Of a stretch of 64,000 nucleotides of DNA, positions 1-57,110 are shown piece after piece. This DNA is from Dehalococcoidia bacterium (GTDB taxonomy: Bacteria > Chloroflexota > Dehalococcoidia > Lucifugimonadales > UBA3495). The DNA lies in the NCBI GenBank assembly GCA_963665395.2, contig OY762251.1, positions 432,151 to 496,150 of the forward strand, given 5' to 3'. Position 1 is the stretch's first letter; the number at the start of each line of letters is the position of its first letter. Below the pieces are notes generated by a model. That model worked only from the letters and a program-made list of their open reading frames with translations. It searched no databases and was not told where the DNA came from. The position numbers and the translations under genes are program-made.

Positions 1-558
1 CGTGTCGGCGTAGCGGGCATCTCCAGTCCGCATCTCCAAACCGGGACAACGGGCGGCCACGGGCTCCAGCCACGCCGGCGCGGCCCGGGGCTCTTCCCGG
101 TGAGCGCCAATAACCACCTGATCCAGCGCCGCCAACCCCTCCCGACTGAACACGCATCGCGCTTTCAACGGTTCCCCTGCTTCCCCAACCCCCCGCCGGG
201 TCTTCCCATCCAGCGCGGCGGTGGCAATGCCATCGCCACGCTGCGCCTGTAGCGCTATTACAAACTCCAGCAGCGCCGGGCGCACTTCCCCTGCTGACAC
301 CATCCCCAGCAGCCGGGACAAGGTCGGCGCTGACGGGCTGCGCCGCAATCCCAGCCGGGTCAACAACGGTGGGCGCCTATCGCCAAAGCGATAGATGGCG
401 CTCAGCGACGGGCAATCGCGCCTCAGACCCAGCGCCGTCAAACTCAATACGCCCTCCAACGGGTGCGCCAATCCCCGACGCAACCGATGATCACTCAGCC
501 GGCCCAGATGCTCCCGCAACAACCCAAACTCTTCGCTCAATGCGCTGCCGCTTTCCAT
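1..558 (-). CDS. ISAs1-family (H-repeat / DDE_Tnp_1-associated) transposase, N-terminal 186 codons; the ORF runs off the window edge
   Basis: Own minus-strand translation from ATG 558..556, with GGAGG 7 nt upstream: MESGSALSEEFGLLREHLGRLSDHRLRRGLAHPLEGVLSLTALGL...SAIYRFG...PSAPTLSRLL...DGKTRRG. This fits the ISAs1 N-terminal pattern. It is absent from the ORF track because no stop lies in the window. Confidence 0.7.
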   Translation of the reverse strand, partial: MESGSALSEEFGLLREHLGRLSDHRLRRGLAHPLEGVLSLTALGLRRDCPSLSAIYRFGDRRPPLLTRLGLRRSPSAPTLSRLLGMVSAGEVRPALLEFVIALQAQRGDGIATAALDGKTRRGVGEAGEPLKARCVFSREGLAALDQVVIGAHREEPRAAPAWLEPVAARCPGLEMRTGDARYADT

Positions 559-608
559 CGCCGTACCTCCCCACCCTATTCTCATGCCTCTCTACGACTT
601 TAGAAAGG
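1..608 (-). mobile_element. Terminal part of an ISAs1-like insertion sequence; the inner end is estimated at about 600-608
   Basis: The transposase start is at 558. Homology of the flanking surface-protein gene begins abruptly at nt 609, in the middle of a repeat. The exact IS terminus was not determined. Confidence 0.5.
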
Positions 609-3600
609 CCCTGGCCCAGCGCCGGTACTTGCTCCGCCGCGCTAACCGGCGCGACCCACAGCCTCTCCAACCTCGCCGCGGGGACGGGGTACGTCTATCG
701 GGCGTACTCCGACTCCACCTGCTCGACCGAGGTCGCCAGCGAGGCGTTCAGCGCCTCCGTCACGGTGGGGAACCTGAACGAGGGGTTGTCAGGATCGCGT
801 GACGTGGGCAACTGGCAGCCTCATGGCACCGGCCGGCGGGATTGGGCCAACGGCTTCACCACCGGCCCGCACCCCACCGGCTACACGTTGTCGAGCGTGA
901 CCGCCAAGTTCGGCAATGCCAGCGGTTCGCCCGGCGACTTGGCGGTGGCGATCTACACGGACAGCAGCGGCGCGCCGGGCACGTCGGCGACGACGCTGAG
1001 CGGGGACAGCGCTCCAACCACGGCGGGCGATTACGCCTACGCCTGCTCGACCGGCTGCGACTTGTCGAAGGGAACGGCGTACCACCTGGCGTTGTCGGTG
1101 GACTTCACCCAGAAAGCCTATTACACCTGGCGTCGAACCACCGCCAACCGGGAGACGAACACGCCGAGCAACGCCGGTTGGAGCATCGCCAACACCAGCC
1201 ATCGCAAAGCCGGCTCCTGGACTACCTTCCAGGCCGGCGGAGTCAGTGTGTTCGAGGTGATGGCGACGCCGAAGCCGGCGCTGTTGGCCGGCAGCGTTAC
1301 CGACACCACGGCGGCGCTGACGCTCACCGGCCGTACCGACGGCTGGTGGCTGAAGCAGACGTCGCCGGCGACGGGAACCTGCACGGCGGGCGAGTCCGAC
1401 TACTCCCACGCCCTGAGCACCCTGACCGGCGGCACTGCCTACACTTACAAGGCGTACAGCGACAGCGCCTGCACGACCGAACTGTTCAGCGCGACGTTCA
1501 CCACCTTCGTCTCGTCGCTGATCGCCGGCAGCGTCACCGGCACGACGGCGACGCTGACCATCGGCAACCACACCGGCAACTGGCACCTCAAGCAGACCGC
1601 GCCCTCGGTCGGCAGTTGCTCCGCCGCCATCACCGGCACGACGCACGATTTGAGCACCCTCACGGCGAACACGACCTACACCTACCAGGCGTACCGCGAC
1701 AGCGGCTGCGCGACTGAGATCGCCAGCGCGACGTTCACCACCCTGGTCTCGTCGCTGGCTGCCAGCAGCGTCACCGACACCACGGCGACGCTGACCATCG
1801 GCAATCACACCGGCAACTGGTACGTCAAGCAGACCGCGCCCTCGGTCGGCAGTTGCTCCTCCGCCATCACCGGCACGACCCACGATTTGAGCACCCTGAC
1901 CGGCGGCACGACCTACACCTACCAGGCGTACCGCGACAGCGGCTGCGCGACTGAGATCGCCATCGCGACATTCACCACCCTGGTCTCGGTCAGCAGCCTG
2001 GGCAACAGTCGGATTGACGCTAGGTTAGTCGGCTACCTAGTCGGCGTTCACCAGAAAGCCGCCGCCCAGTTCACCACCGGCGGCTACTCCAACGGCTACG
2101 CTCTGTCCTCCGTCACCATCAAGATTGACGATTACTTCCACAGCTTCGGCACGCCCGGGGACCTGACCGTGGCCATCTACTCCAATGGCTCCGACGGCAA
2201 GCCGAATACCCTGGTGACGACGCTGACCGGGAGCAACCCCACCGGCGCGGGCCAATTCACCTACCGCTGCACATCGAGCTGCTCCCTGTCGGCCGGCACC
2301 AGTTACCACGTGCTGCTGGAGACGCCCAACGCCAGTGGACCCAACTCCTACTACGGATGGGAATCCTCAAATTCGAGCGCCGAGGTCCAGCAGCCGTTGG
2401 GCAACGGCTGGTCCATCGGGAAATCGTTCGAATACGACCCCAACGTGTGGTCGGATCTGACCCATTACCTCAAGTTCCAGGTAACGGCGACGCCGAACCC
2501 CAGCCTCGAACCGTCCAGCATCACCAGCACGACGGCGACGCTTACCCTGGCCAACCACACCGGCAACTGGTACGTCAAGCAGACCGCGCCCTCGTCCGGC
2601 AGTTGCTCCTCCGTCATCACCGGCACGACCCACGATTTGAGCGCCCTGACCGCCGGCGCGTGGTACACCTACCGGGCCTACGGCGCCAGCGGCTGCGCCG
2701 ACGCCGACGAGCTGGCCGCCGCGGTCTTCTCCGCCGCCGTCGCCGTCAGCAGCCTCAGCGAGGGGAATGCGCATACCAATTCCATCGGCTACGCGTCCGG
2801 TGGTCAACAAACGAGGTCGCAAGCCTTCACCACCGGCTCGAACCCCGGCGGCTACACGCTGTCCAGCGTCTCCGTCATGTCCATGGCGAAGCGAGGGAAC
2901 CCGGCCAGCTTCGTGGTGAAGCTGCACGCGGCGTCCGGGAACCACCCGGGCACGGAGTTGGCCACCCTCAGCGGGGACGACCCGGACACGGCCGGAACGC
3001 ACGCCTACACCTGCTCCGGCGCCGGGTGCGCCCTGGCGGCGAACACCACCTACCACGTCGCGATGAGCGCGCCCAACAGTCCCACCGGCACCAACGCCTA
3101 CGAAATCAGGATGACGCATTCGGACAATGAGACGAATACGCCGTCCTCCGGCGACTGGTCTATTGCAAACGGCGGCCGGGTGCTCAATTACACCAGCCAG
3201 TTTGCGTATAAGATCCAGGTGGCTGCGCTGCCCAGGCCGTCGCTGATCGCCGGCGGCGTCACCGACACGACGGCGACGCTGACGCTGACGGGCCACCTCG
3301 GCGACTGGTGGCTGAAGGAGACGTCGCCGGCGACGGGAACCTGCACGGCGGGGGAGGCGGACTACTCCCACGCCTTGAGCTCTCTTACCGCCGGCGCTGC
3401 CTACACCTACAAGGCCTACCGCGCCAGCGGCTGCGCCAGCGCGGACGAGATTACCGGCGCGACGTTCACCACCCCGGTAACGGTCAGCAGCCTGGGCAAC
3501 GCTCGGAATGGCCATGTCATCGTCGGCAAGTCATTCGGCAATCAACAGAAAACCGCGGCCCGGTTCACCGCCGGCAGCAACTCCGGCGGCTACAATCTGT

Positions 3601-3986
3601 CCTCCGTCACCATCGAGTTTGACACTAAATACGGCACGACCGGAGACCTGACCGTGGCCATCTACTCCAACCACAACAGCGGCAAGCCCGATACCCTGGC
3701 GACGACGCTGACCGGGAGCAACCCCACCGGCGCGGGCCAATTCACCTACCGCTGCGCCGCCAGCTGCTCCCTGACGGCCGATACCAGTTACCACGTGGTG
3801 CTGGAAGCGCCCGACGCCGTCGGCGCCAACGACGGCTACTCATGGGAAACTTCGAGTGCGAACACCCAGGTCAAGCAGCCGTTGGGCAACGGCTGGTCCA
3901 TCGGGAAATCGTACAAGCACACCCACACCTCATGGAGTGAAGAGAGCTCGTTCTTCAAGTTCCAGGTGACGGCGACGCCGAAGTAA
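369..3986 (+). CDS. Repeat surface protein, 5'-truncated by the ISAs1 insertion and probably a pseudogene; Cys-containing FN3-like repeats alternate with four copies of an unassigned module of about 170 aa
   Basis: ORF track, 1205 aa. Real homology starts at codon 81 (nt 609) with half an FN3-like repeat (PSAGTCSAALTGATHSLSNLAAGTGYVYRAYSDSTCSTE). The FN3-like consensus is TATLTLxNHTGxW(W/Y)xKQT..C..T.YTY.AY.DS.C. The module consensus is FTTG....GY.LSSVT ... DL.VAIYS ... NGWSI ... KFQVTATP. The nominal GTG at 369 lies inside the IS, and there is no signal peptide. Confidence 0.6.
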   Translation: MGAYRQSDRWRSATGNRASDPAPSNSIRPPTGAPIPDATDDHSAGPDAPATTQTLRSMRCRFPSPYLPTLFSCLSTTLERPWPSAGTCSAALTGATHSLSNLAAGTGYVYRAYSDSTCSTEVASEAFSASVTVGNLNEGLSGSRDVGNWQPHGTGRRDWANGFTTGPHPTGYTLSSVTAKFGNASGSPGDLAVAIYTDSSGAPGTSATTLSGDSAPTTAGDYAYACSTGCDLSKGTAYHLALSVDFTQKAYYTWRRTTANRETNTPSNAGWSIANTSHRKAGSWTTFQAGGVSVFEVMATPKPALLAGSVTDTTAALTLTGRTDGWWLKQTSPATGTCTAGESDYSHALSTLTGGTAYTYKAYSDSACTTELFSATFTTFVSSLIAGSVTGTTATLTIGNHTGNWHLKQTAPSVGSCSAAITGTTHDLSTLTANTTYTYQAYRDSGCATEIASATFTTLVSSLAASSVTDTTATLTIGNHTGNWYVKQTAPSVGSCSSAITGTTHDLSTLTGGTTYTYQAYRDSGCATEIAIATFTTLVSVSSLGNSRIDARLVGYLVGVHQKAAAQFTTGGYSNGYALSSVTIKIDDYFHSFGTPGDLTVAIYSNGSDGKPNTLVTTLTGSNPTGAGQFTYRCTSSCSLSAGTSYHVLLETPNASGPNSYYGWESSNSSAEVQQPLGNGWSIGKSFEYDPNVWSDLTHYLKFQVTATPNPSLEPSSITSTTATLTLANHTGNWYVKQTAPSSGSCSSVITGTTHDLSALTAGAWYTYRAYGASGCADADELAAAVFSAAVAVSSLSEGNAHTNSIGYASGGQQTRSQAFTTGSNPGGYTLSSVSVMSMAKRGNPASFVVKLHAASGNHPGTELATLSGDDPDTAGTHAYTCSGAGCALAANTTYHVAMSAPNSPTGTNAYEIRMTHSDNETNTPSSGDWSIANGGRVLNYTSQFAYKIQVAALPRPSLIAGGVTDTTATLTLTGHLGDWWLKETSPATGTCTAGEADYSHALSSLTAGAAYTYKAYRASGCASADEITGATFTTPVTVSSLGNARNGHVIVGKSFGNQQKTAARFTAGSNSGGYNLSSVTIEFDTKYGTTGDLTVAIYSNHNSGKPDTLATTLTGSNPTGAGQFTYRCAASCSLTADTSYHVVLEAPDAVGANDGYSWETSSANTQVKQPLGNGWSIGKSYKHTHTSWSEESSFFKFQVTATPK

Positions 3987-4039: not shown

Positions 4040-6541
4040 CTACTCCGGCCCTGCGGGCGCCTCGTTGCCCGCCATGCGGTAGCCGACGCGGCGTTCGGCG
4101 ATGATGTACTTGGGGTTGCCGGCGTCGTCGTCGAGCTTGAGGCGCAACCGCCGCACGTGGGTGCGCAGGGCCGCCACGTTGCCGGACTTCCCGCCGCCCC
4201 AGACCCGACGCAGCAACTGGTCGTAGGTCAGCGTCCGGCCTCCACTGAGCGACAGCGCGCGCAGCAGGTCGTACTCCTTGGCGGTGACCGGCGCCGGACG
4301 GCCGGCAACGGAAACCAGCCTTATGGCGTAGTCGATGGTCAGGTCGCCCAAGACGTAGGGTTCCGGCGTCTCGAACGGGAAAGGCCCTCCCCGACGGCGC
4401 AGCGCCGCCCGCACCCGGGCCACCAGCTCCGCGGGGGCAAAAGGCTTGACGATGTAGTCGGAGGCTCCCATATCGAAGGCCCTGGCGATTATCTCCTCCT
4501 GGCCGTAGGCGGAGAGGAAGACCACCGGCACGTCGGCGACGGCGAATATATCCTGCATCAGCTCGATGCCGTCAGAGCCGGGCAGCATCATGTCCAACAG
4601 CGCCAGGACGGGCCGATTTTCCCCAATCAGGCGGAGGGCCTCTTCCGGGTCGGCGGCGACAATGGGGTCGTAGCCGGCGCCGGAAAGGGCTTGCCTGACG
4701 TACCGCAGCGTCTGCGGGTCGTCGTCAACCACCAGGATGGGGTCGCCGCCGCTAGCTCTCTCTGCCATTTCCTGCCGCCCGCTCGCGGCGAACGCGCGGG
4801 CCGCCAGCGTCGCCTCTTCCACCGCGGGCAGGGTGAAGCTGAACCGCGCGCCGAGGCTGGGCCCCTCGCTCTCGGCCCAGATGCGTCCCCCGTGGGCCGC
4901 CACAATGCCCCGGCTGATAGCCAGGCCCAGGCCGGTGTCGCCGGCTTGCTCCCTGGCCCCGGTCTCCGAGAACTTACGGAACAGGCGGGGCAGTTGCTCC
5001 GAAGGTATCCCCCGGCCTTCGTCAGCGACGAACATGACGACGTGGCCGCCCTCCCGAAACGCGCCCAGCTTGATTGTGGTTGCGGCGGGGGAGTGCCGGG
5101 CGGCGTTGGACAGCAGGTTGCCGATGACCTGGACGATGCGCCGGCGGTCCGCCATCACCGCGGGCAGGCGGGGCGCCAGGTCGATGTCGAGACTGCTCCG
5201 GCCGCCGCCGCTCAGGAAGATGTTCCGCGCCCGGTCCACCAGCAGGGCCACCTCGGTCGGTTCCGGGCTTACCGGCAGCGCGCCCGTCTCAATCCGCGCC
5301 ACGTCCAGCAGGTCGTCGATCAGTTCCCTCATGTTGTCGGACTGGTCCACGATGATGCGCTGGAACTGGCGCAACTCGGCCGGGGCCAGGTCCGACGCGG
5401 CGTCCAGCACGGCCGTGGCCGAGCCCCGGATGGACATCAGCGGGGAACGCAGTTCGTGGCTGACCATGCCCAGAAATTCGGCCCGCAGCCGCGCCGGCTC
5501 TTCCAGCGGCGTCAGGTCCTGGAGCGTGATGACGAAGGACTCGACGCCGCCGTCTGGCGACCGGATGGGCGTGGCGTTGAGCAGGACGGCCACGCTCCGC
5601 CCGTCGGGAACGCTGAGGACGATCTCCTCGGCTCGCACCGTTTCGCCGGCGCTCAGGGCCTCGGCGAAGGGCCATTCCCGCAGGGAGACCGCCCGCCCGT
5701 CGGCGCGGCGGACGGTCATGACGTCCAGCAACTCTTCGGGCCGCTGCGTCGGTTCCCGCAGGTCGTCCACGATCCGCGAGGCTTCCCGGTTGAACGACAG
5801 GGGCGCGCCGGTCAGGCCGTCGAAGACGACCACCCCCACGGGCGAGGTCTCCACCAGGGTCTCCAGGGCCGACCTGGCCTGACGTTCGTCCCGGTATTGC
5901 CGGGCGTTGGCAATGACCAGGGCGGCCTGAGAAGCGAACATCACCAGCGTCTCCTCGTCTTCACGGCTGAACATCTGGCCGGGCTCTCCGTTGCCCATGT
6001 GAATGTTGCCCACCCGGACGCCCCGGTGCCGGATGGGAACCGCCAGGAAGGAGCTCATCGGCACCGGCGGCCGGAACTCGGGCAGCCCCATGGCCCGGGC
6101 GTGGCTGGGAAAGTCGGACAGGCGCAGCGGTTCCGGGAACGAGTTGATGTAGTCAAACACCTCCCGGCCGCCCGGCATCGCCCAAAGTCGCTGCGCTTCC
6201 TCGGGCGTGAACCCGGAGGCCAGGAAGTCGTCAATCCGCCCCGCTGCGTCCAAAGTAGTCATCACGCCGTAGCGGGCGCCGGTCAAGGACCGGGCGCTGT
6301 CCAGCGCCTTCTGCAACACCGCGTCCAGCTCCAGGCTGTCGTTGATGCTCAGGCTGGCCTCGCTCAGCCGGGTCAGGCGGTCTTCCAGGGCCGCGATCCG
6401 CCGGTCGCGGTCGTCGTTCCGGGTCACGGTCTCATCTCCCGCTAAATCCAGCTTCGAGTGTACACCATCGGCGGCGCGTGACGGGAATGCCTTTGCCGAA
6501 GTCATTATAACGTAATCAAAAATTGCGGGTAATGTTTTCAA
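4040..6541 (-). CDS. Hybrid sensor histidine kinase fused to a full OmpR-type response regulator (GAF-PAS-HisKA-HATPase_c-REC-winged helix)
   Basis: H-box SHELRSPL; ATPase motifs DEGRGI and GLGLAI; receiver ILVVDDDP...LLDMMLPG...KPF; C-terminal TAKEYDLL...RVGYRM winged helix. The start is uncertain: ATG 6541, ATG 6505 or GTG 6424. Confidence 0.85.
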   Translation of the reverse strand: MKTLPAIFDYVIMTSAKAFPSRAADGVHSKLDLAGDETVTRNDDRDRRIAALEDRLTRLSEASLSINDSLELDAVLQKALDSARSLTGARYGVMTTLDAAGRIDDFLASGFTPEEAQRLWAMPGGREVFDYINSFPEPLRLSDFPSHARAMGLPEFRPPVPMSSFLAVPIRHRGVRVGNIHMGNGEPGQMFSREDEETLVMFASQAALVIANARQYRDERQARSALETLVETSPVGVVVFDGLTGAPLSFNREASRIVDDLREPTQRPEELLDVMTVRRADGRAVSLREWPFAEALSAGETVRAEEIVLSVPDGRSVAVLLNATPIRSPDGGVESFVITLQDLTPLEEPARLRAEFLGMVSHELRSPLMSIRGSATAVLDAASDLAPAELRQFQRIIVDQSDNMRELIDDLLDVARIETGALPVSPEPTEVALLVDRARNIFLSGGGRSSLDIDLAPRLPAVMADRRRIVQVIGNLLSNAARHSPAATTIKLGAFREGGHVVMFVADEGRGIPSEQLPRLFRKFSETGAREQAGDTGLGLAISRGIVAAHGGRIWAESEGPSLGARFSFTLPAVEEATLAARAFAASGRQEMAERASGGDPILVVDDDPQTLRYVRQALSGAGYDPIVAADPEEALRLIGENRPVLALLDMMLPGSDGIELMQDIFAVADVPVVFLSAYGQEEIIARAFDMGASDYIVKPFAPAELVARVRAALRRRGGPFPFETPEPYVLGDLTIDYAIRLVSVAGRPAPVTAKEYDLLRALSLSGGRTLTYDQLLRRVWGGGKSGNVAALRTHVRRLRLKLDDDAGNPKYIIAERRVGYRMAGNEAPAGPE
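6504..6532 (-). promoter_or_regulatory. Candidate sigma70-like promoter for the kinase gene (TTACCC, 17 nt, TATAAT on the minus strand)
   Basis: Plus-strand gggtaa at 6527..6532 and attata at 6504..6509, with a 17-nt spacer. This is only meaningful if the kinase starts at GTG 6424 (GGAG 8 nt upstream). Confidence 0.25.
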
Positions 6542-6585: not shown

Positions 6586-9500
6586 ATGAAGTTCAGCCAA
6601 TCGGATAACAACCGAGGTACATTGATGTTCGGATCGCTAACGCAGAGCAAGCTGGCCGCCGGGTTTGGGGCCTTCCTCACCCGCCCCCGCGCGTTCCTCG
6701 CCCTGGCCGCCGTCGCCGTCCTAGTCGCTGCCGGGCTGATTGCCGCGTCGCTGCTGTCCGGCCCGGCCGGCGTCGCCTCGGCGCAGACGTCGCCGCCCAC
6801 CGGATGCGTGACGGGCGGCCCCGTAAAGGCCATCGCAACCGGCGGGGGCGACTTGACCCAGTTCGACATCGACGAAGGCCAGACCCTTTACTACGAACTC
6901 CAACTCCGCAATAACCCCAACGGCTCGGTAATGGTCGCTTCAGGCTTGCTGGAGCCGGATAACCCCAACGCGGACGAGCGGAACAAGCTGGACAACGCTG
7001 ACGTCACCGTCTCACCGAGCGTGCTGTTCTTCAACAGTTCCAACTGGAACCAGAGCCAATGGGTCGCGGTAAGCGCCCGCGAAGACGACGGCGCCGTTGA
7101 CGGCAAGGCCATCGTCGGCCACGAGGCCGTCGGCTCGCCCAACGACGTTACCTGCGTCGTCGTCAACGAAAAGGACAACGACACGCCCGCCGATCCAACC
7201 CCGACTCCTACCCCCACCCCCACGCCGACCCCCGAGCCCGCGAGCGTCGGCTTCGTGATTGCCAAGCCCGACGGAAGCCCGCTCACCATTAAAGACATTA
7301 ATGACAAGGACTTCCTCGGACTGTACGTCGCCAACAGCGGGTCGGCATCCTTCGTCGTCAGCCTGGCCACCCAGCCGGCCTCCGACGTGCCGGTCAACGT
7401 CACCAAGCACTATGACCGCTTCGGCACCGTCAACTTTAGTCCGGCGCGGCTGGACTTCACCACCAGCAACTGGAGTACGCCGCAGACGATAACCGTCTCC
7501 TCCACCGGCCCCGTTCCGGGCCGCAATGGCAGCGCCGTCCTGCGCCTGCGCGCCGACCGCGACACCGAGGACGAAGCCTACCGCCAACTGGTCTGGGCCG
7601 ACGTCCGCGTCCGCGAGTTTGACCCGCCGGCCCTCCTGCTGAGCGCCAACCCCCTGACCGTCAACGAAGGCTCCTCCGCAAGCTACGGCGTCCGCCTGCA
7701 CACCAAGCCCACGGCCAACGTGACCGTGACGCTGACCGAAGGCACGGGCAGCAGCGACGACACCGACGTTACCGTTGCCTCGTCCAAGACGCTGACCTTC
7801 ACCTCGGCCAACTATAAATCCGCTCAGGCGGTCACCGTGGCCGCCGCCCACGACGACGACCTGGTGAGCGGCTTCCGCGTCATCACCCACACCGCCGCCA
7901 GTACCGACGCCAAGTACGACGGCCTCACGGTGCAGCTTACCGCCAACGAAAACGAGAGCGACACCGCCGCCATCGTGGTGTCCACCAATGCCGTAACCGT
8001 TCCCGAAGGCGGCTCCGCAACCTACACCGTCAAACTCAGCAACCAGCCCTCGGGCGACGTGAACGTCAGCATAAACCCCAGCTCTACCAGCGGAGGCGGC
8101 GATGACGACATCAACGTCGCGCCCCGCTCGCTCGCCTTCACCAAGATTAACTGGCACACGGCGCAGACCGTAACCCTGTCCGCCGCCCCGGACGGCGACG
8201 ACCTGAACGGAACCAATACCATCACCCACACCGCCGCCGGCGCCAACTTCGACGCCGCGCGGCAGGTCTTCGTCACCGCCACCGAGGGCGACGACGACCA
8301 ACGCGGCTTCGTGGTGAACCCCGTCCCGGGCCCGGTCACCATCGCCGAGGGCGGATCGTTCTCATACACCATCAAACTGGGCACCCAGCCCACCGCCGAC
8401 GTGACCGTGGACTTCACGGTATATGACCCCAAGGACATTAGCTTCGAGCCGGTGAACCCCCCACCCACTTTTACCGCCAACAACTGGAGCACGGAGCAGA
8501 CGGTCACCTTCCGCGCCGATGAGGATAACAACGACTATGTGGACGACAGGGTGACCATTCACCACACCGTCACCACCACCGACGCCATCTACACCGAGCA
8601 GACGATCGGCGACATCGCCGTAACCGTTACGGACAACGACGCCGCCATCGTCCTGTCCGCCAACGCGGTGACCGTCCCCGAAAACAGCAGCGCAACCTAC
8701 ACCGTCAAGCTCAGCCACGCGCCCACGGCCGACGTGACCGTCACCATTGCCGAAGGCACGGGCAACGACGACGACACCAGCCTACGGGTCACCGGCCCGT
8801 CGTCAAAGCGGCTGACCTTCACCACGGCCAACTGGAATACCGCCCAGACGGTCCGAATCTACGCCGCCGGCGACTCCGACGCCGTGAACGGAACCCGCGC
8901 CATCAATCACACCGCCGCCGGCGGCGGCTTCGACAGCGCGCCCACCTTCTCCGTCACCGCCATTGAGCACGACTCCCGCGCCGCCATTATCCTCAGAAAC
9001 GCCGCCGATACCGGCAACGTCAGCAGCATCAACAACGTGCCGGAAAACGGCAGCGGCGTTGACTACAAAGTGAAACTGGCCGCCCAGCCCGCCGGCGACG
9101 TCACCGTTGCGCTCTCCGTAACCGGCGACGGCGACGTGAGCGTCCAGCCGGCTTCCCTTACCTTTACCGCCGGCAACTACGCGACGTTGCAGACCGTAAC
9201 CGTGAGCGCGGCAACCGACGCCGACCTGCTCAACGGAACCGCCACCATCGCCCACACGGCCACCGGCGGCGGCTACGACGGCCTGGCCGCCAAGAACCTG
9301 TCCGCCACCGAGACGGACACCACCGGCCAGATTAAGGTCAAGGACGCCAACGATAACGCGGACATCACCGGCATCAGCGTGCCGGAAGGCGGCAGCGCCG
9401 ACTACAAAGTGCAGCTCAGCCACTTGCCCACCGGCAACGTAACCGTCCGGCTGGCCCTGCAATCCACGTCCGACGACGGCGACGGCGACATCACTGCCAA

Positions 9501-12500
9501 CAAGACGGTCCTCTACTTCAACACAGGCAACTGGGACACCGCGCAAGAGGTCAGGCTCAGCGCCCGCGAGGACAACGACTCGCTGCGCGGCAGCCGCATC
9601 ATCACCCACACCGCCACGGGCGGCGGCTACAACAGCCCCACCAAGGCCCTTACCGCTACCGAGCTGGATAACGAGATCGGCCTGACCTTCACCGACACCA
9701 ACGGGAATGAAATCAGCGCGCTGGCCGTTCCCGAGAACGGCTCCAAGGATTACCAGGTCAGCCTGAAAGCCACGCCAACGCAGCCGGTCGTGGTGAACCT
9801 GGTGGTATCCGGCGACCTTGATATAACCGCCAGTTCAAGCAACCTGTCATGGACGGTTGCCCAGGCCGGCGAGTCCAGAACTGTCACCGTGAGCGCCCCC
9901 GACGACACTGACTTCGTCCGCGGCTCCGCAACCATCACCCACCAGGCCAGCGGCGGCAACTACGCCGGCCTCAACGTTGACCTCCCCGTCACCGAAGTCG
10001 AAAACGACGTCGGCATCGCCATCACCCCCGACGCTTTGACCGTCCCCGAAGGCGGCAGCGCCACCTACACCGTGGGGCTGGGCGCCGGGCCCGAGTATGG
10101 CAAAGACGTCGTCGTTGCGTTGACCGGCTCGGGCGATGACAACATCACTTTCAGCCCGGCGTCGCTTACCTTCACCGCCGGCGCCAACGGCAACTGGCCG
10201 ACCGCCCAAACGGTCACCGTCCGCGCCGCCGCCGACAACGACGCCCTCAACGGAACCAAGACCATCACGCATACCGCGGTCACCACCGACACCCACTACA
10301 ACGGCGTCACCGCCACGCTGGTCGTCACCGAGCGGGAACCCGTCATCACCCTCACCCCGTCAACCAGCCTGAGCGTTGCCGAGGGCGGCAGTGAGACCTA
10401 CACCGTGGCCATCAACAACCGGCCCTCCGGAACCGTCACGGTCGCCATTGGCTACCAGTCCGGCGGCGACGACGACATTACCGTCAACAAGACCAACCTG
10501 TACTTCTACAACAACAGCAGCTGGAGCCAGCCGCAGACGGTCACCGTCGCCGCCCGCGAGGACAACGACAGCCTCGCCGGAACCAGGACCATCACCCACA
10601 CCGCCAGCGGCGGCGGCTACAACAGCGTAACCGCCAGTATCCTCGCTAACGAAGTCGATAACGACGCGGCCATCATCGTCACGCCCCGCACGGGCACGGA
10701 GTTCACGGTCACCGAAGAACTCACCGAAACCTACACCGTGAAGCTGGCAACCCAGCCGTCCGCGGACGTCACCGTGACCATCGCGGAAGCCACTGCCGGC
10801 GACAACACCGACGCCAGCATCACGGTTACGTCCAGCAAATCGCTGACGTTCACCGCAAGCGACTGGTTCACCGCCCAGACCGTCACGCTGAGCGCCGCCG
10901 ACGATACCGACTTCGCCCACGGCAAGCGGGACATCGCGCACACCGCCAGCGGCGGCGGCTACGGCAACGTGACCAGGACCATCACCGTCCGCGAAATCGA
11001 AAACGACAAGGGCATCCACGTCGAACCCGCCACGCTGACCGTCCGGGAAACCGGCAGCGCCACCTACGAGGTGAACCTGGGCAGCTACTTCCTGACCGGC
11101 AATCAAGTCACCGTTACGCTGACCGCCACCGGCGACGGCGACGTCACCTTCGACACCGACCCGGACACAGCCGGCAATCAGAACCGCTTGACCTTCACCA
11201 ACAATAACCTCCACGTACCGCAGACCGTCACCGTGTCCGCCGCCAGCGACAATGACGCCAGTAACGGAACGGCGACCATCACGCACACCGCCAACAGCGT
11301 CTATAACAACGTGACCGCCACGTTGACGGTCACCGAGGGCGAGCCGCCGCTCCTGGTCCGGAACGCCGGCGACACTGCCGACATCACCGCGCTAACCGTG
11401 AACGAGGGCAGCAGCTCCGGCTCGGGCTTCGCGTCCTACAAGGTCAAGCTCAGCTCCCAGCCGTCCAGCAGCGTAACCGTCCATCTGGACCTGCAATCCA
11501 CGTCCGGCAACAACCCCGGCGACTCCAACATCAGTGTCTCGCCGCGCTCGCTGACGTTCACCACGCAGAACTGGAACCTCCCCCAGAACGTCAAGGTGTG
11601 GGCCACCGATGACGACGACCAGATTAACGGCTCGCGCGCCATCACCCACCGCGTCAACGGCGGCGGGTACACCAACGCCGGCTCCGTAGTCCTCACCGCC
11701 ACCGAAGTGGACGACGACGTGCCGACCCTCACCACCGACAGCGTGACCGCCACCGGCGTCACGCTCACCATCGCCAACCACACCGCTGCCTGGTGGTACA
11801 AGTCGGACACCGCCGGCGCGACGACCTGCACGTCCGTGGCCCAAAACACCAACACGGTAACCGTGACCGGCCTGACCCCCGCCACTTCGTACACCTACAC
11901 GGCGTACAGCGGCAACGCCTGCTCGACGTCGCTTGCGGTGGCCACGGCGGCGGCATTCACCACCAACGGCTTTTCCGTCAGCAACCTCGGCGAGACGGAC
12001 CATACGGAAAAATGTGGGATGAATGGCGGCCTAAAATGCGCCGTCCGCTTCGACACCGGCCCCGCCACCAATGGCTATACCCTGCACTCCATCACCGCCA
12101 AACTGGAAAAAACGGGAACGCCCAGCGGCTTCACTGTGTCTCTCCACTCGAACAATAACGGAAACCCGACCGACAATGCCCTGGCTACCCTGAGCGGCAG
12201 CGAGCCGACCACCACCGGCGAATACACCTATACCTGCGCCGGCAGCGGGTGCGCCCTCTCCGAGGACACCACCTACTTCGTGCAATTTGGACAGACTTCC
12301 ACTGGCGGCCTTATCAACGGGTTCATTTTGATCGCCACTGCATCAGACAACGAAACCAAGATTCCTTCCGGCAACGGCTGGACCTTGGCGAACCAGATAA
12401 AAAGGGCGAGTGGCAACTCTTGGGATGCTCTCGACTATGCGGGGAAAGTCAAGATAGTCGCCACGGCCGGGAGCGGCGGCAACCCGAATCAGCAGCAGCC

Positions 12501-13377
12501 GGCGCAGGAGCCGGAACCGCAGCCGCCGGCGCAGTTCACGCCGACCCTCACGGCCGGCGACGGCAAGTTGACGGCGAGCTGGACTCCCCCGGCCGACAAC
12601 GGCGACGCCATCACGGGCTACCGGGTGCAGTACCGCCAACACCCCGGTGGCGCCTGGGCCGTGTCCGGCGGCGTCCTGAACGCGGACGCGCGCCGCCTGG
12701 AGATTGCCGGCCTGGAGAACGGAGCGACCTACCGGGTGCGGGCGCAGGCGCAGAACGGCGCCGGCTGGGGGCAGTACTCCTGGCCTCTGGCCGAAATCAC
12801 CCTGCCCGCGCCCCAGCCGCCGGCCAGCGTGGGCAGCGTGAGCGCCAGCCGCAGCAACGGCAACATCGCCGTCAGCTGGAACGCCGCCGACGGAGCCACC
12901 AAGTACCACGTCACCTACACCGACAACGGCGGCCAGAGCTGGTCGCTGGCCGCCCTGGAGCACAATACCAACAGCATCACCATCAGCGGCGCCGACGATG
13001 ACAAGGTGTACATTGTGGGCGTGCGGGCCGGCAACGCCGCCGGCTGGAGCGGCTGGGTCAACTCCAACACCGTGCCGGCGGCGCAAACGCCGCCGGGCAG
13101 CGTGGGCAGCGTAACCGCCACCCACAACGGCGACACGGTTACGGCCAGCTGGAACGCCGCCAGCGGAGCCACCAAGTACCACGTAACCTACACCGGCGAC
13201 GGCGGCGCAAGCTGGTCGCTGGCCGCCCTGGAGCATTCCGCCACCAGCATCACCATCGGCGGCGCCGACTCCGGCAAGTCCTACATTGTAGGCGTCCGGG
13301 CCGGCAACGACGCCGGCTGGAGCGGCTGGGTCAACTCCCCACCGGCCAAATACGACGCCGGGGCATCAACACAGTAG
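6586..13377 (+). CDS. Giant secreted or anchored surface protein: signal/TM segment, PT linker, about 14 tandem Calx-beta/cadherin-like beta-sandwich repeats, one Cys-FN3-like domain, one copy of the unassigned 170-aa module, three canonical FN3 domains
   Basis: N-terminal hydrophobic AFLALAAVAVLVAAGLIAASLL..ASAQ. Repeats of about 100 aa (VTVPEGGSATYTVKL..QP..DVTV......DDDI.V...LTFT..NW.TAQTVT.SAA.D.D..NG...ITHTA.GGGY) span roughly nt 6868-11730. The 170-aa module is at about 11965-12469. The FN3 domains are at about 12540-13350 (TASWTPP..NG..ITGYRVQYR; YHVTYT..GG.SW). Confidence 0.9.
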   Translation: MKFSQSDNNRGTLMFGSLTQSKLAAGFGAFLTRPRAFLALAAVAVLVAAGLIAASLLSGPAGVASAQTSPPTGCVTGGPVKAIATGGGDLTQFDIDEGQTLYYELQLRNNPNGSVMVASGLLEPDNPNADERNKLDNADVTVSPSVLFFNSSNWNQSQWVAVSAREDDGAVDGKAIVGHEAVGSPNDVTCVVVNEKDNDTPADPTPTPTPTPTPTPEPASVGFVIAKPDGSPLTIKDINDKDFLGLYVANSGSASFVVSLATQPASDVPVNVTKHYDRFGTVNFSPARLDFTTSNWSTPQTITVSSTGPVPGRNGSAVLRLRADRDTEDEAYRQLVWADVRVREFDPPALLLSANPLTVNEGSSASYGVRLHTKPTANVTVTLTEGTGSSDDTDVTVASSKTLTFTSANYKSAQAVTVAAAHDDDLVSGFRVITHTAASTDAKYDGLTVQLTANENESDTAAIVVSTNAVTVPEGGSATYTVKLSNQPSGDVNVSINPSSTSGGGDDDINVAPRSLAFTKINWHTAQTVTLSAAPDGDDLNGTNTITHTAAGANFDAARQVFVTATEGDDDQRGFVVNPVPGPVTIAEGGSFSYTIKLGTQPTADVTVDFTVYDPKDISFEPVNPPPTFTANNWSTEQTVTFRADEDNNDYVDDRVTIHHTVTTTDAIYTEQTIGDIAVTVTDNDAAIVLSANAVTVPENSSATYTVKLSHAPTADVTVTIAEGTGNDDDTSLRVTGPSSKRLTFTTANWNTAQTVRIYAAGDSDAVNGTRAINHTAAGGGFDSAPTFSVTAIEHDSRAAIILRNAADTGNVSSINNVPENGSGVDYKVKLAAQPAGDVTVALSVTGDGDVSVQPASLTFTAGNYATLQTVTVSAATDADLLNGTATIAHTATGGGYDGLAAKNLSATETDTTGQIKVKDANDNADITGISVPEGGSADYKVQLSHLPTGNVTVRLALQSTSDDGDGDITANKTVLYFNTGNWDTAQEVRLSAREDNDSLRGSRIITHTATGGGYNSPTKALTATELDNEIGLTFTDTNGNEISALAVPENGSKDYQVSLKATPTQPVVVNLVVSGDLDITASSSNLSWTVAQAGESRTVTVSAPDDTDFVRGSATITHQASGGNYAGLNVDLPVTEVENDVGIAITPDALTVPEGGSATYTVGLGAGPEYGKDVVVALTGSGDDNITFSPASLTFTAGANGNWPTAQTVTVRAAADNDALNGTKTITHTAVTTDTHYNGVTATLVVTEREPVITLTPSTSLSVAEGGSETYTVAINNRPSGTVTVAIGYQSGGDDDITVNKTNLYFYNNSSWSQPQTVTVAAREDNDSLAGTRTITHTASGGGYNSVTASILANEVDNDAAIIVTPRTGTEFTVTEELTETYTVKLATQPSADVTVTIAEATAGDNTDASITVTSSKSLTFTASDWFTAQTVTLSAADDTDFAHGKRDIAHTASGGGYGNVTRTITVREIENDKGIHVEPATLTVRETGSATYEVNLGSYFLTGNQVTVTLTATGDGDVTFDTDPDTAGNQNRLTFTNNNLHVPQTVTVSAASDNDASNGTATITHTANSVYNNVTATLTVTEGEPPLLVRNAGDTADITALTVNEGSSSGSGFASYKVKLSSQPSSSVTVHLDLQSTSGNNPGDSNISVSPRSLTFTTQNWNLPQNVKVWATDDDDQINGSRAITHRVNGGGYTNAGSVVLTATEVDDDVPTLTTDSVTATGVTLTIANHTAAWWYKSDTAGATTCTSVAQNTNTVTVTGLTPATSYTYTAYSGNACSTSLAVATAAAFTTNGFSVSNLGETDHTEKCGMNGGLKCAVRFDTGPATNGYTLHSITAKLEKTGTPSGFTVSLHSNNNGNPTDNALATLSGSEPTTTGEYTYTCAGSGCALSEDTTYFVQFGQTSTGGLINGFILIATASDNETKIPSGNGWTLANQIKRASGNSWDALDYAGKVKIVATAGSGGNPNQQQPAQEPEPQPPAQFTPTLTAGDGKLTASWTPPADNGDAITGYRVQYRQHPGGAWAVSGGVLNADARRLEIAGLENGATYRVRAQAQNGAGWGQYSWPLAEITLPAPQPPASVGSVSASRSNGNIAVSWNAADGATKYHVTYTDNGGQSWSLAALEHNTNSITISGADDDKVYIVGVRAGNAAGWSGWVNSNTVPAAQTPPGSVGSVTATHNGDTVTASWNAASGATKYHVTYTGDGGASWSLAALEHSATSITIGGADSGKSYIVGVRAGNDAGWSGWVNSPPAKYDAGASTQ

Positions 13378-36518: not shown

Positions 36519-37290
36519 CTACTTCGACACCGCCGTCACCTTGAACTTGAAGGACTCTGCGGGACTGACGGCATTCCATGAAACCGTATTGATGGTGTTA
36601 CCAGACCCACGTTTCGCTGCGTCGCCGATGCTCCATCCCCCACTGCCGGTCTGGCCGTTCGAGGCAGTCCAGGTCAGGTTGTAGAGGTCGGTGTTGTGGC
36701 TGCCGCTGGCCGAGTGCATCACCAGCCAGTAGGTAGTGTTCCGCCAGGTCGCACGTATCCGAGCAGGTGAACTCGTAATCGCCCGCAGTAGTCGGGTTGC
36801 TTCCGTTCAGAGTCGCGACCGGGGTGTTGCCATCGGGACGATTGCTGGAGTGGTTGGAGTGGATTGCCACGGTGAGCGCGCCGGGCGAGCCGGTGTGGCG
36901 GCGAACTTGACGGTTGCACTGTGCAGGGTGTAGCCACCGCTATTGGAACCCGTGGCAAAGGAGTTCGCCACGTTCCTCCGCGACGTCCCGCCGCCGGCCC
37001 AGTAGATTTCCTGCGGATTGTTGCTGGCGGTCTCGTTGAGGTTGCTCACCGACTCCGACGTGGTGAAAGTTACCGTGGCGATTTCGTCCGCGCTGTTGCA
37101 GCCGTCCTTGGAGTACGCCTTGTAGGTGTAGGTCGTGTCGGCAGTCAGGGCGCTCAGGCTCTCGGTCGCCGTCGTTCCCTTGGACTTGCAGGCCTGGTTG
37201 GCGATGTCGGTGCGTTTCAGCCACCACTCCCCCGAGTAGTGCGACAGCGTGAGCGTCGCCGATGTCGTCGTGACGCTCGACGGTGCAAGC
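36519..37290 (-). pseudogene. C-terminal remnant of a third surface-protein gene (one Cys-FN3-like repeat plus one 170-aa module); cut by IS630 and carrying two frameshifts
   Basis: Own translation from the IS630 border: LAPSSVTTTSATLTLSHYSGEWWLKRTDIANQACKSKG..TTYTYKAYSKDGCNSADEIATVTFTT..FATGSNSGGYTLHSATVKF. A frame shift near 36890 leads to GSPGALTVAIHSN..YEFTCSDTCDLAE. A second shift near 36748 leads to NTTYWLVMHSAS..GGWSIGD..FKFKVTAVSK*. TAG lies in frame immediately upstream of the junction. Confidence 0.75.
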
Positions 37291-55400: not shown

Positions 55401-57110
55401 CAGGTGCGCGCCGTCAACGTGGTGGGCGACGACAGCTACGAAAGCGGCTGGAGCACCGCCACCGTAGGCACGGTAGCCGCCCCCGACCAGGTGGGCAACC
55501 TACAGGCCCGCCGCACCCCCAACAACCTGACCAACATCATCGTCAGCTGGGATGCCCCCAGCGTCGGCGCCACGCCCGACGGCTACGACGTGCAGTACCG
55601 GGAAAACAACGGCGACTGGCAAACCGCGGCAACCAAGCAGGCCGGACTGACGTACACGCATGGCAACGCCAAAGGCGCCAGCAGCTACCAGTTCCGCGTG
55701 CGCACGGTCATTGAATCCGGCAGCGACGACGTACCCGGCAGCTGGCGCACCACCGGCACGGTGTCGAAGGTTCCGAATCCCGGCGCAGTGTCCGGCCTGA
55801 CCGCGGCCCGCACCGCCACCGACGAAACCAAGATCGACGTCACCTGGACGGCGCCCAGCGGAGGCACCACTCCCTCCGGCTACGATGTGGCGTACCGGGT
55901 CAACGGTAGCGGCGACTGGCAGACCACCGACTTGACGGTCACCGGAACCACTGCCGAGTTGACCGGCGCATCCGGCAACAGCACTTACCAGTTCCGTGTC
56001 CGCGGGGTCAAGACGCTCACCCACACCAACAACACGGTCGAAAATCTCGCGGGCAGTTGGAGAACGTCCAGCACGGTGCCGAAGGTGTCCGCGCCCAACC
56101 GGGTCACCGGCCTGACGGCGACGCGCAGCGACACCGACGAAACCAAGATTACCGTCACCTGGACGGCGCCCAGCAGCGGCGACACGCCTACCGGGTACGA
56201 CGTGGAGTACAAGCAGGACGGCGGCAACACCTGGAATACCGGGACGACCGTGACCCATCCGACCGTGACGCACACGTTCACCGTGGCCGGCGGCAGCAGC
56301 TACCAGTACCGGGTGCGGGCGTTCCGGACACTCACCAGCACCAACGAAAAGCTGGAGGGCAGCTGGACGACCTCCGGCACGGTGCGCGGCCTGCCGGCCG
56401 GCCCGGTAACCAACCTCACGGCGACGCGCAACACGGCGGACAAAACCACCATCGACGTGAGTTGGTCGGCGTCGAACCGGGCCACCGGGTACGACGTGCA
56501 GTACCGCAAGAACAGCGGCAGTTGGAGCACGGGGGCGAGCAAGCAGACCGGGCTGACGTACACGCAGACCGACGCCGGCGGGGTGGAGACTTACCAGTTC
56601 CGCGTGCGCGGCGTGTCCGGCGCCGGCAACGGCGACTGGACGGAATCGGCCCAGGTGGGGCCGCCGCCGCTGGAGTGGCAGGGCTACGAAGTCGGGCCGA
56701 CGGTGGCCGACGGCAAGATGGCGTGGATCACGCTGAAGATGGCCAGCGGCCCCTGGTGGTACGAGTACCGCAACCACGTGGGCGACTGGTCCAGCTGCAA
56801 GCGGGTGGCCGCCGGCAGCCACACCATCACCAACCTGCGCGCGCCGATTACGTATATCGTCGAGATCTTCGACGCTGCCGGCTGCGACAACGGCGACCGC
56901 ATCCGGCGGGAAAACATCACCACCGTGGACGTGCAAGACACGATCCTGGACGGCAAGGACCCCAACAACCACACCCACAAGCGGCAGTATCCGCGCCTGG
57001 GCGTCCTGGGCGAAGGAGATTGCGCGTCCGACCGGATGTGGCACAGCCACGGCTGGCCCAATAGCGGCAACTGGTACGGCCAGCACTGGCACTGCCAGAT
57101 TTACCAATAG
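52479..57110 (+). CDS. Large secreted protein (1543 aa): signal peptide, lower-GC N-terminal region, DUF11-like domain, six FN3 domains, C-terminal Cys-FN3-like domain and a His/Trp/Cys-rich tail
   Basis: Signal LVFVVLLALAALGAAAALALLPAAGQTASAQ. YTFHVGPAAELSVADG...LDLSNHGPDPSVAAKVAVQLP. FN3 repeats (V(T/S)WTAPS...GYDV.Y....G.W......YQFRVR) at about 54880-56680. MAWITLKMASGPWWYEYRNHVGDWSSCKRV..ITYIVEIFDAAGC. Confidence 0.85.
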   Translation: MPARRRVTSRRPLVFVVLLALAALGAAAALALLPAAGQTASAQGSASLEECHNLYLDMYVDNNDMHFTVANRNDEETIANVMVKFKRDAAADDDQTSQWTRAAATQFIAGYGTAWVSDAPDYIVHWLLPAVPPGTSYRARIGPGSSLAPVRQSISRNTVTMEQRVPGADTALCRTTREFWSRKGGTYVRAFAGVYKIGELSVDNRYPAPGGNVNFKVVGDSQDSVSASVKVQHTSGLEFQTEGTPPSNKAPVIKPTPQSPRTLPLAVWQHYNATTGVGEFYIGNEGVTSIAARPEISLTLPLKLKSGVSADGQCLTATITATPKYANPNTPGENYDDPADNTKTVCLGKPPTDELPVLLTDGPADLLNLVGCASRTDYPCEATDPATPNRVELVVAGNDAAVNAGMPYQYFQPEDVVVQIPDPAGRNTVTGESGIFWWSGSDQASTGANHPGIEPGVAGYNTSECLADKDPNNSPDDDPEYKGWKLAIANITDGQGNTIDHTPGSMTLWDISSVENHSFGYVDVDGGNNLGRELEYPDDKLCGTSFLYTYEFGKLGTYKVDFTNETKYQDANATAYSDTARYTFHVGPAAELSVADGDDVPALASGQTAYTLDLSNHGPDPSVAAKVAVQLPADATGVATVPANLGTFHAAGTTAGVAHGPYWIWDAGELLQSDFSRVAGRPQGGVVSLIVTGVSSGATATATVSNGNGSCSVSSTTLTHVIREADCKAVTGATWTAANPYTVCIDTDHLRLLDVTPKPANQTACEATTGNKWYAGTVLDHRPGNNTATLTARGGGAGLSGWSAAPGVGRPTVMLNWPAATAAVEYRIFRSADGKLGSYRQIKRVDQDTLTYTDAADVLKENETYYYQVEALYPNKRLADIYATSITATLKARSPHAPYSVSGLKAARTADNENIIAVTWTAPSNATAATRYDVQYQTRLGNTGNYGDWTAAATKQAGLAYTITGAGGGTSYRIQVRAVNVVGDDSYESGWSTATVGTVAAPDQVGNLQARRTPNNLTNIIVSWDAPSVGATPDGYDVQYRENNGDWQTAATKQAGLTYTHGNAKGASSYQFRVRTVIESGSDDVPGSWRTTGTVSKVPNPGAVSGLTAARTATDETKIDVTWTAPSGGTTPSGYDVAYRVNGSGDWQTTDLTVTGTTAELTGASGNSTYQFRVRGVKTLTHTNNTVENLAGSWRTSSTVPKVSAPNRVTGLTATRSDTDETKITVTWTAPSSGDTPTGYDVEYKQDGGNTWNTGTTVTHPTVTHTFTVAGGSSYQYRVRAFRTLTSTNEKLEGSWTTSGTVRGLPAGPVTNLTATRNTADKTTIDVSWSASNRATGYDVQYRKNSGSWSTGASKQTGLTYTQTDAGGVETYQFRVRGVSGAGNGDWTESAQVGPPPLEWQGYEVGPTVADGKMAWITLKMASGPWWYEYRNHVGDWSSCKRVAAGSHTITNLRAPITYIVEIFDAAGCDNGDRIRRENITTVDVQDTILDGKDPNNHTHKRQYPRLGVLGEGDCASDRMWHSHGWPNSGNWYGQHWHCQIYQ

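Follow-up and report, generated by a model that had tools for sequence, protein, structure and literature searches.

What is the module of about 165–175 amino acids (aa) that recurs six times in one stretch of a Dehalococcoidia bacterium genome, and what might it do at the surface of the cell? The stretch, called the window here, is the whole of the 64,000 nucleotides analysed (contig OY762251.1; C1:432151-496150 of a 4.64-Mb genome in 6 contigs), and its six module copies were delimited by motif location and alignment. An earlier note, made from the letters alone, had placed these copies in three surface-protein genes, each behind an FN3-like unit with two cysteines, and had assigned them to no named family. 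Judged by its profile matches, the module is the choice-of-anchor R domain (hereafter R), a catalogued family without an assigned function, and the window copies are ordinary members of it. From modelled fold and analogy, R is predicted to be the binding head of secreted adhesin-like or lectin-like proteins, a reading to which we give a probability of roughly 0.5.

The family assignment comes from NCBIfam. Its model NF041539, the choice-of-anchor R domain (155 positions, cut-off 30 bits), matched the 1205-aa open reading frame (ORF) at the start of the window in four stretches (244 bits, E 4.7e-73) and the 2263-aa protein downstream at 72 bits, which overturns the verdict that the module has no named family. 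The copies on the plus strand scored 77–83 bits each, with matches running from model positions 1–17 to 152–155. A six-frame search of the whole genome returned 27 matches of 44–90 bits, nearly end to end and including all six window copies; the boundaries of our own alignment agree, and the six positions given earlier stand. In addition, the R profile was searched against 1.84 billion protein representatives (clusters at 50% identity) and found 3,954 proteins at E <= 1e-10, a number that rises to 7,188 when E <= 1e-3 is accepted. The NF041539 domain occurred in 0 of 14 well-known control genomes. Pfam, run on the full-length proteins and on 18 R domains taken singly, gave no family for R, a PDB sequence search with the R profile gave no match even at E 10, and PHROGs gave none either. 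In NCBIfam naming, 'choice-of-anchor' presumably designates a domain of secreted or surface proteins that use differing anchoring or sorting devices. The earlier note would have been refuted by a confident match to a characterised family of known function; NF041539 bears a name, and no functional paper on it was found.

The R copies and the FN3-like units (about 80 aa, with a W-[WYH] motif) lie in the ORFs 369-3986 (1205 aa) and 6586-13377 (2263 aa) and in a remnant, and a related unit lies in the ORF 52479-57110 (1543 aa). By alignment, R covers residues 131-305, 539-712, 794-960 and 1039-1205 of the first protein and 1795-1962 of the second. The features are as follows.

614..758, plus strand: what is left of the two-Cys FN3-like unit ahead of R1, namely its C-terminal half (unit profile, ORF residues 156-206, E 4e-14)
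759..1283, plus strand: R1, choice-of-anchor R (NF041539 at 834-1268, 80 bits; alignment)
1284..1991, plus strand: three tandem two-Cys FN3-like units, F1 1284-1517, F2 1521-1754 and F3 1758-1991 (unit profile E 9e-36 to 9e-39; alignment)
1983..2504, plus strand: R2, choice-of-anchor R (NF041539 at 2049-2492, 77.4 bits)
2508..2753, plus strand: F4, two-Cys FN3-like unit (alignment and unit profile)
2748..3248, plus strand: R3, choice-of-anchor R (NF041539 at 2778-3221, 77 bits)
3246..3488, plus strand: F5, two-Cys FN3-like unit, modelled jointly with R4 (AlphaFold2 model of window 3237-3983; FN3 scaffold matches, probability 1.0)
3483..3986, plus strand: R4, choice-of-anchor R, the last domain of the protein, with the stop codon at 3984-3986 (NF041539 at 3528-3977, 82.8 bits)
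11728..11973, plus strand: F6, two-Cys FN3-like unit of the intact 2263-aa protein (unit profile E 3e-27)
11968..12471, plus strand: R5, choice-of-anchor R of the 2263-aa protein (NF041539 at 11980-12462, residues 1799-1959, E 5.1e-20)
36519..37289, minus strand: pseudogene remnant with one complete two-Cys FN3-like unit and one R in three reading frames (NF041539 36531-36998, 44 bits, one in-frame TGA)
56700..56930, plus strand: near the C-terminal end of the 1543-aa protein, a sequence distantly related to the two-Cys FN3-like unit (unit profile 8.7 bits, residues 1416-1471)

Conservation and cysteine counts were taken over 657 non-identical R domains and 549 FN3-like units, drawn from this genome, 150 family representatives and 87 loci and aligned to their own profiles. 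The most conserved positions of R are F30 (100%), T32 (98%), G33 (99%), L99 (98%), Y105 (99%) and W140 (95%), and the landmarks read earlier from six copies hold across the whole set. A second tier comprises Y39 (92%), L41 (92%), L78 (91%), G139 (90%) and W153 (88%), and T126, S128 and E131 are conserved at 71–81%. Judged by the predicted order of strands, the loops that hold conserved polar positions are 32-38, 65-72, 100-103 and 127-131, and those that vary most are 53-58 and 111-119. Provided that the strands simply alternate up and down, this topology would bring the conserved loops together at one end of a sandwich and the variable loops at the other. A conserved site could then be built from the F-T-T-G, G-Y, P71, T103/T104 and T126-x-S-x-x-E loops and the G-W-x-I preceding strand 141-149, with the variable loops placed away from it.

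The same alignment bears on the idea of R as an enzyme domain (a glycosidase, an esterase or a peptidase) or as the target of a diversity-generating retroelement with a hypermutated C-terminal loop. Weak fold matches to carbohydrate esterase and carbohydrate-binding module (CBM) entries and to an entry for the protease Cwp84 would fit an enzyme, and the frequent C-terminal place of R recalls the variable regions of retroelement targets. However, the 657 domains contain no catalytic-type set of conserved acidic, His, Ser or Cys residues, their near-invariant positions being F, T, G, L, Y and W; E131 reaches only 74%, and the Cwp84 match, by its entry title, is to the lectin-like and not to the protease domain. 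An enzymatic or retroelement-target role for R is very improbable. As for the retroelement, it was dropped as a candidate after a motif search of the six-frame ORFs of the genome gave no retroelement-type reverse transcriptase motif (template repeats were not searched).

Cysteines are distributed with a striking parity. The 657 R domains carry none (282 domains), two (282), four (84) or six (1), with an odd number in 8. The main pair is spaced by 2–8 residues, mostly 3–4, and an optional second pair brackets the first hairpin, where 612 of 613 domains have 0 or 2 cysteines and 84 of the 613 have the pair. Exactly two cysteines are present in 548 of the 549 FN3-like units. Such parity is what disulfides predict, and cysteines so strictly paired point to putative disulfide-stapled domains that would work outside the cell. 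An example of the optional second pair is provided by R5 at window 12010-12040 (...KCGMNGGLKCAVRF...).

Two AlphaFold2 models describe the fold, one of F5 and R4 together (window 3237-3983), built on an alignment of 21 FN3+R cassettes from this genome, and one of R4 alone, built on an 18-sequence alignment. The first reached a predicted local distance difference test score (pLDDT) of 95.5 and a predicted template modelling score (pTM) of 0.89, the second a pLDDT of 95.5 and a pTM of 0.91; both are all beta, and R4 alone shows about 13 strands. R is thereby predicted to be a compact jelly-roll or lectin-like beta-sandwich without a close solved relative. In the two-domain model, the last FN3 strand runs directly into the first strand of R, and this strand-to-strand junction, together with the high two-domain pTM, suggests that FN3 and R form a rigid unit.

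The two-Cys unit is modelled with strands at 2-6, 13-18, 25-30, 37-38, 44-47, 55-61 and 71-78, a seven-strand FN3 sandwich. Foldseek aligned it at probability 1.0 with engineered FN3 scaffolds (5j7k_G, template modelling score over the target (TMt) 0.67; 5l2h_D, TMt 0.61), and with many FN3 tandems. Its Pfam scores stay below gathering: PF00041 gave a best E of 0.001, in one of eight units (threshold 25 bits), and PF16656 gave E 2.8e-5, in two units and below its cut-off, while all sub-threshold Pfam matches are FN3- or Ig-like; the F6 region (residues 1717-1780) shows a weak Pfam Pur_ac_phosph_N match. The unit is predicted to be a diverged FN3 domain by its fold and not by Pfam sequence score. 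It differs from the FN3 families PF00041 and PF16656 in its invariant Cys pair and W-[WYH] motif, which to our knowledge are not general features of FN3 domains.

The nearest solved and predicted structures include phage tail, baseplate and capsid proteins and a lectin-like domain. The lectin-like domain of Clostridioides difficile Cwp84 (4d59/4ci7), found at TMq 0.60–0.66 (template modelling score over the query) and Foldseek probability 1.0, resembles R in being a beta-sandwich of comparable size within a protein that is secreted and associated with the surface. The two differ in sequence (15–16% identity, root-mean-square deviation (rmsd) ~7 Å, no sequence-level relation), and Cwp84, unlike the R proteins, pairs its lectin-like domain with a cysteine protease. 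Cwp84 also carries cell-wall-binding repeats, and we know of no established ligand for its lectin-like domain. Against CBM6 and CBM35, R scored TMq 0.31–0.37, below Cwp84; R does have conserved Trp, Tyr and Thr. Further neighbours are the phage phi812 baseplate protein 9euj_G (TMq 0.58), the PBCV-1 capsid protein 8h2i_bG (TMq 0.59), a capsid protein of cyanophage A4, and tail-tip proteins of the mycobacteriophages Bxb1 (9d93_Pa) and Douge (gp20). In BFVD, the best viral protein was A0A510E7Y7 (TMq 0.80, rmsd 2.6 Å, 21% identity); the top matches are unnamed, and below them stand many minor tail and collagen-repeat tail proteins. The distal jelly-roll domains of phage tail, baseplate and minor-tail proteins (phi812, Bxb1, Douge, A0A510E7Y7) thus share the fold class of R, although they are parts of fibres or baseplates and not of FN3-rich bacterial surface proteins, and no PHROG sequence match connects them. 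Phage jelly-roll domains of this kind sit at fibre tips and touch cell surfaces.

These neighbours also admit an explanation in which R is purely architectural, that is, a rigid spacer or a lattice or matrix unit of an S-layer-like or biofilm-matrix protein, with conserved loops that serve packing and no external ligand. Several of the nearest folds are capsid, cement or baseplate proteins that act by packing, AlphaFold2 gives a fixed FN3-R arrangement, the conserved residues are mostly hydrophobic or turn-forming, and family members form long tandem arrays of up to 17 copies. On the other hand, the conserved polar T31/T32, T126, S128 and E131 and the two Trp are typical of ligand sites, the same proteins already obtain a stalk from plain FN3, Ig and cadherin domains, and the far N-terminal place of R in a Pfam-confirmed autotransporter (see below) suits a binding head and not a spacer. 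A purely architectural R is possible, if on the doubtful side.

If R is a ligand-binding head, its ligand would probably be a glycan or another surface polymer. FN3- and Ig-type stalks would hold R away from the cell, and with several R domains per protein, weak binding at single sites could sum to adhesion or agglutination. This lectin- or adhesin-like reading is plausible and agrees with the fold, the autotransporter position and the partner domains of R.

All R copies in the window are preceded by the two-Cys FN3-like unit, as had been claimed, with the qualification that the unit of R1 survives only as a half, cut by an insertion sequence (IS) and reading ...PSAGTCSAALTG...YVYRAYSDSTC.... 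Three units stand in tandem before R2, and the pairing is not strictly 1:1. Of the 27 R domains of this genome with a complete N-terminus, 19 are preceded by an FN3-like unit and 13 are followed by one. Related Dehalococcoidia metagenome-assembled genomes (MAGs) show the same interleaving, and among the fetched loci the FN3 unit was confined to MAGs titled Dehalococcoidia or Tepidiformaceae. The unit can also stand without R, for instance ten in a row in one protein, and among the top 150 family members 88 are FN3-interleaved and 61 are pure R arrays. The fixed pairing, read earlier as a functional cassette, is therefore borne out in part: the genome-wide count, the Dehalococcoidia MAGs and the pTM of 0.89 speak for it, whereas 61 of 149 top members lack the unit and the unit is also found alone.

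The NF041539 family at large consists, like the window proteins, of large secreted repeat proteins of the same architectural kind. The R proteins of this genome differ from it in their regular fusion behind the two-Cys FN3 unit, in that R is frequently the last domain, and in showing no recognisable C-terminal sorting signal, for which LPXTG was screened by pattern. Intact paralogues start with a stretch that looks to the eye like a signal peptide, and ordinary FN3 or Calx-like repeats come next; past these, FN3 unit and R alternate, often stopping exactly at the end of an R. A second arrangement has R directly after the signal peptide, as in the paralogue C1:174574-176418 (signal peptide by eye) and, with long tails behind it, in MAGs titled Paracoccaceae, Ca. 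Poriferihabitaceae, Thermodesulfobacteriota, Gammaproteobacteria and Aldehydirespiratoraceae. Pfam identified SWM repeats, He_PIG, cadherin, FN3 and Calx-beta domains in the tails behind a single R. In the MAG titled Paracoccaceae (locus L024), signal peptide and R are followed by He_PIG and SWM repeats and an autotransporter beta-domain (PF03797, E 2.4e-12), which makes R the part farthest from the membrane anchor. Two further loci (L023 and L031) have tails that look barrel-like by eye, for which Pfam made no autotransporter call. In sum, the ends of R homologues comprise one Pfam autotransporter barrel, cadherin, FN3, Calx or leucine-rich repeat (LRR) tails, or R itself.

R in L024 thus resembles the N-terminal binding heads of type Va autotransporter adhesins, placed at the tip of a passenger of Ig-like repeats ahead of a PF03797 barrel. 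The R proteins of the window differ from these in having no beta-barrel. Chloroflexota lack a classical outer membrane, and their export and anchoring logic must therefore differ from that of type Va autotransporters. R itself could be the anchor of the Dehalococcoidia proteins, with a C-terminal R bound to the cell's own envelope polymer and the remainder projecting outward. Such a role would suit the last-domain position of R (in this genome, 12 of the 28 R domains with a complete C-terminus; in top family members, 49 of 519), the result of the pattern search for LPXTG, which found none (other sorting signals were not screened), and the N-termini, which by eye look like cleavable signal peptides that would otherwise release the protein. 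It is at odds with the paralogue that carries R directly after its signal peptide, with the autotransporter homologue, in which R occupies the end opposite the membrane anchor, and with the family name, which, as we understand NCBIfam naming, would make R the cargo on varied anchors. We regard R as anchor as distinctly unlikely.

Separately from R, a repeat of about 45 aa, G(I/L)WS(D/N)G.T(M/L)WV..........(L/V)YAY, with the look of a beta-propeller blade, lies between or after FN3/R cassettes in several family members; it was seen at C1:4245508-4248105 and again in the C-terminal tails of four homologues (P0016, P0067, P0114 and P0131).

The distribution of R is patchy. Among 121 sampled genomes of the class, 15 carry it; counted by genus, it is present in 10 of 95. 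The R repertoire appears to turn over quickly within the genus, because copy number there runs from 0 to 46 per genome. A survey of named loci, made with one peptide pattern and its best 80 matches and with genome titles as recorded, led to 18 genomes, all 18 of which carry R in 1–25 copies, with titles that span many phyla. The titles of R-bearing MAGs include Dehalococcoidia/SAR202, Acidimicrobiia, Alpha- and Gammaproteobacteria, Binatia, Holophagales, Gemmatimonadetes, Spirochaetia and Thermodesulfobacteriota. An RpoB segment gave reference distances to this genome: 96% identity for a same-genus genome, 72% and 79% for two same-order genomes, 79% for a MAG titled Dehalococcoidia, 74% for the sponge SAR202 bin90, 61–69% for other Chloroflexota, 66% for the Aldehydirespiratoraceae actinobacterial MAG, ~63% for a Holophagales MAG and ~55% for an Arenicellales MAG. 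By this marker, the genome falls within Dehalococcoidia, at about same-order distance from the Dehalococcoidia-titled MAG and from bin90. An actinobacterial origin was considered and dropped: neither a WhiB-like protein nor LPXTG turned up, and RpoB gives the placement just stated.

Several of these records lead to sponges. The R-bearing bins 22, 65, 90 and 125 match, by accession and bin labels, a study of Aplysina aerophoba (PMC5649159), which names bin90 and bin125 (PMC5649159). Furthermore, a sponge metagenome is the source of the Ca. Poriferihabitaceae MAGs (PMC12859430), among the Aldehydirespiratoraceae are sponge symbionts in which cadherin, FN3 and Calx-beta domains are enriched (PMC11706023), and FN3-containing genes are reported to be enriched in sponge MAGs, especially those of Chloroflexota (PMC8163846). 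A tentative extension, which we consider unlikely as it stands, would make R a hitherto overlooked adhesion head that marine sponge symbionts share by lateral transfer and that binds a glycan of the sponge matrix or cell surface. MAGs titled as many phyla would carry it alongside the 'eukaryote-like' FN3, cadherin and Calx-beta domains, with the rigid two-Cys-FN3+R cassette as a Dehalococcoidia-specific form of display.

Loci L037-L066 and two genomes of the window's genus (G005 and G010) contain giant genes in which R stands five times in tandem, and a genome has several near-identical copies of such a gene. These genes share 88–96% nucleotide identity over up to 10.7 kb between differently titled MAGs, one of them labelled Acidimicrobiales. 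Recent cross-phylum transfer of these loci was considered and dropped, as the aligned lengths equal the whole loci and the flanks apparently align too. Because of this, related species with loosely assigned or mis-binned titles are the simpler reading of the likeness.

Several observations weigh against R as a binding head. The nearest PDB structures lie at TMq 0.53–0.66 with E 7e-5 to 6e-2, which is moderate, and architectural capsid and baseplate proteins are among them. DSSP, applied to the R-only model, puts both R cysteines in the single continuous strand 87-99, where a bond needs a kink. A literature search for 'choice-of-anchor R' found no paper, and hence none on function (the papers that name choice-of-anchor families deal with other letters, such as A and I), and the LPXTG search, which found no such sorting signal in the genome, was made by pattern, with PEP-CTERM, type IX secretion system (T9SS) and other sortase signals not screened. 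In addition, the sponge link is one that record titles and one biased peptide pattern suggest.

At the level of the window, the three surface-protein genes recognised earlier are in unequal condition, since the 2263-aa gene is intact, the 5' end of the first gene is missing and the third runs through three frames. The loss in the first gene is explained by one further feature.

1..613, minus strand: end of an ISAs1-type insertion sequence, which removes the 5' part of the first surface-protein gene; the transposase lies on the minus strand

The minus-strand ORF 1-585 matches PF13808 (DDE_Tnp_1_assoc), the N-terminus of an ISAs1-type transposase. The element measures 1203 bp (C1:431561-432763), stops at window nt 613 and has a second genome copy at 98.3% identity (BLAST). 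Directly upstream lies a second, different IS (C1:430217-431551, 1335 bp) with two further copies at 99.4–99.5% identity, and the DNA 5' of both elements holds unrelated transporter genes. The first surface-protein ORF begins in the middle of an FN3-like unit, lacks a signal peptide and has its nominal GTG start within the IS. The remnant occupies the stop-to-stop frames 36807-37289, 36598-36939 and 36519-36806, with profile matches on all three. Among the three R-bearing window genes, then, the 2263-aa gene is the only intact one; one of the others is IS-cut, one is frameshifted, and both are dead. About nine further R-bearing loci of the genome are fragments, some of which could be long-read assembly errors.

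In the 2263-aa protein, R5 is followed by canonical FN3 domains (four fn3 stretches in Pfam). The two-Cys unit had also been said to end the 1543-aa protein; the element at 56700-56930 does keep the invariant Trp and both Cys, but at 8.7 bits and 17% identity in the alignment it is only a distant relative. Behind it, window 56931-57110 encodes the His/Trp/Cys-rich end of this protein (...HTHKRQYPRLGVLGEGDCASDRMWHSHGWPNSGNWYGQHWHCQIYQ), which has no family match. Divergent from the giant surface-protein gene, window 4040-6541 on the minus strand holds one ORF with GAF, PAS, HisKA, HATPase, receiver and OmpR-type DNA-binding domains. Elsewhere, the small-contig gene C6:11213-14128 is near-identical to the R-bearing gene C1:1246128-1249262, their two R domains differing at few residues. 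This duplicate could reflect a second strain or a duplication left unresolved by the assembly, given an estimated contamination of 9.8%.

Altogether, the family name was already known; the fold, the Cys-parity argument, the FN3-interleaved and pure tandem architectures, and the position at an autotransporter tip are new. For annotation, a module that looked like a Pfam orphan becomes a member of a large named family of about 7,200 clusters at 50% identity. At 170 residues and well modelled, the R domain lends itself readily to expression, to glycan arrays and to crystallography. If the sponge link is true, R would be a concrete candidate for the host attachment that is now loosely ascribed to the FN3- and cadherin-rich proteins of sponge microbiomes.

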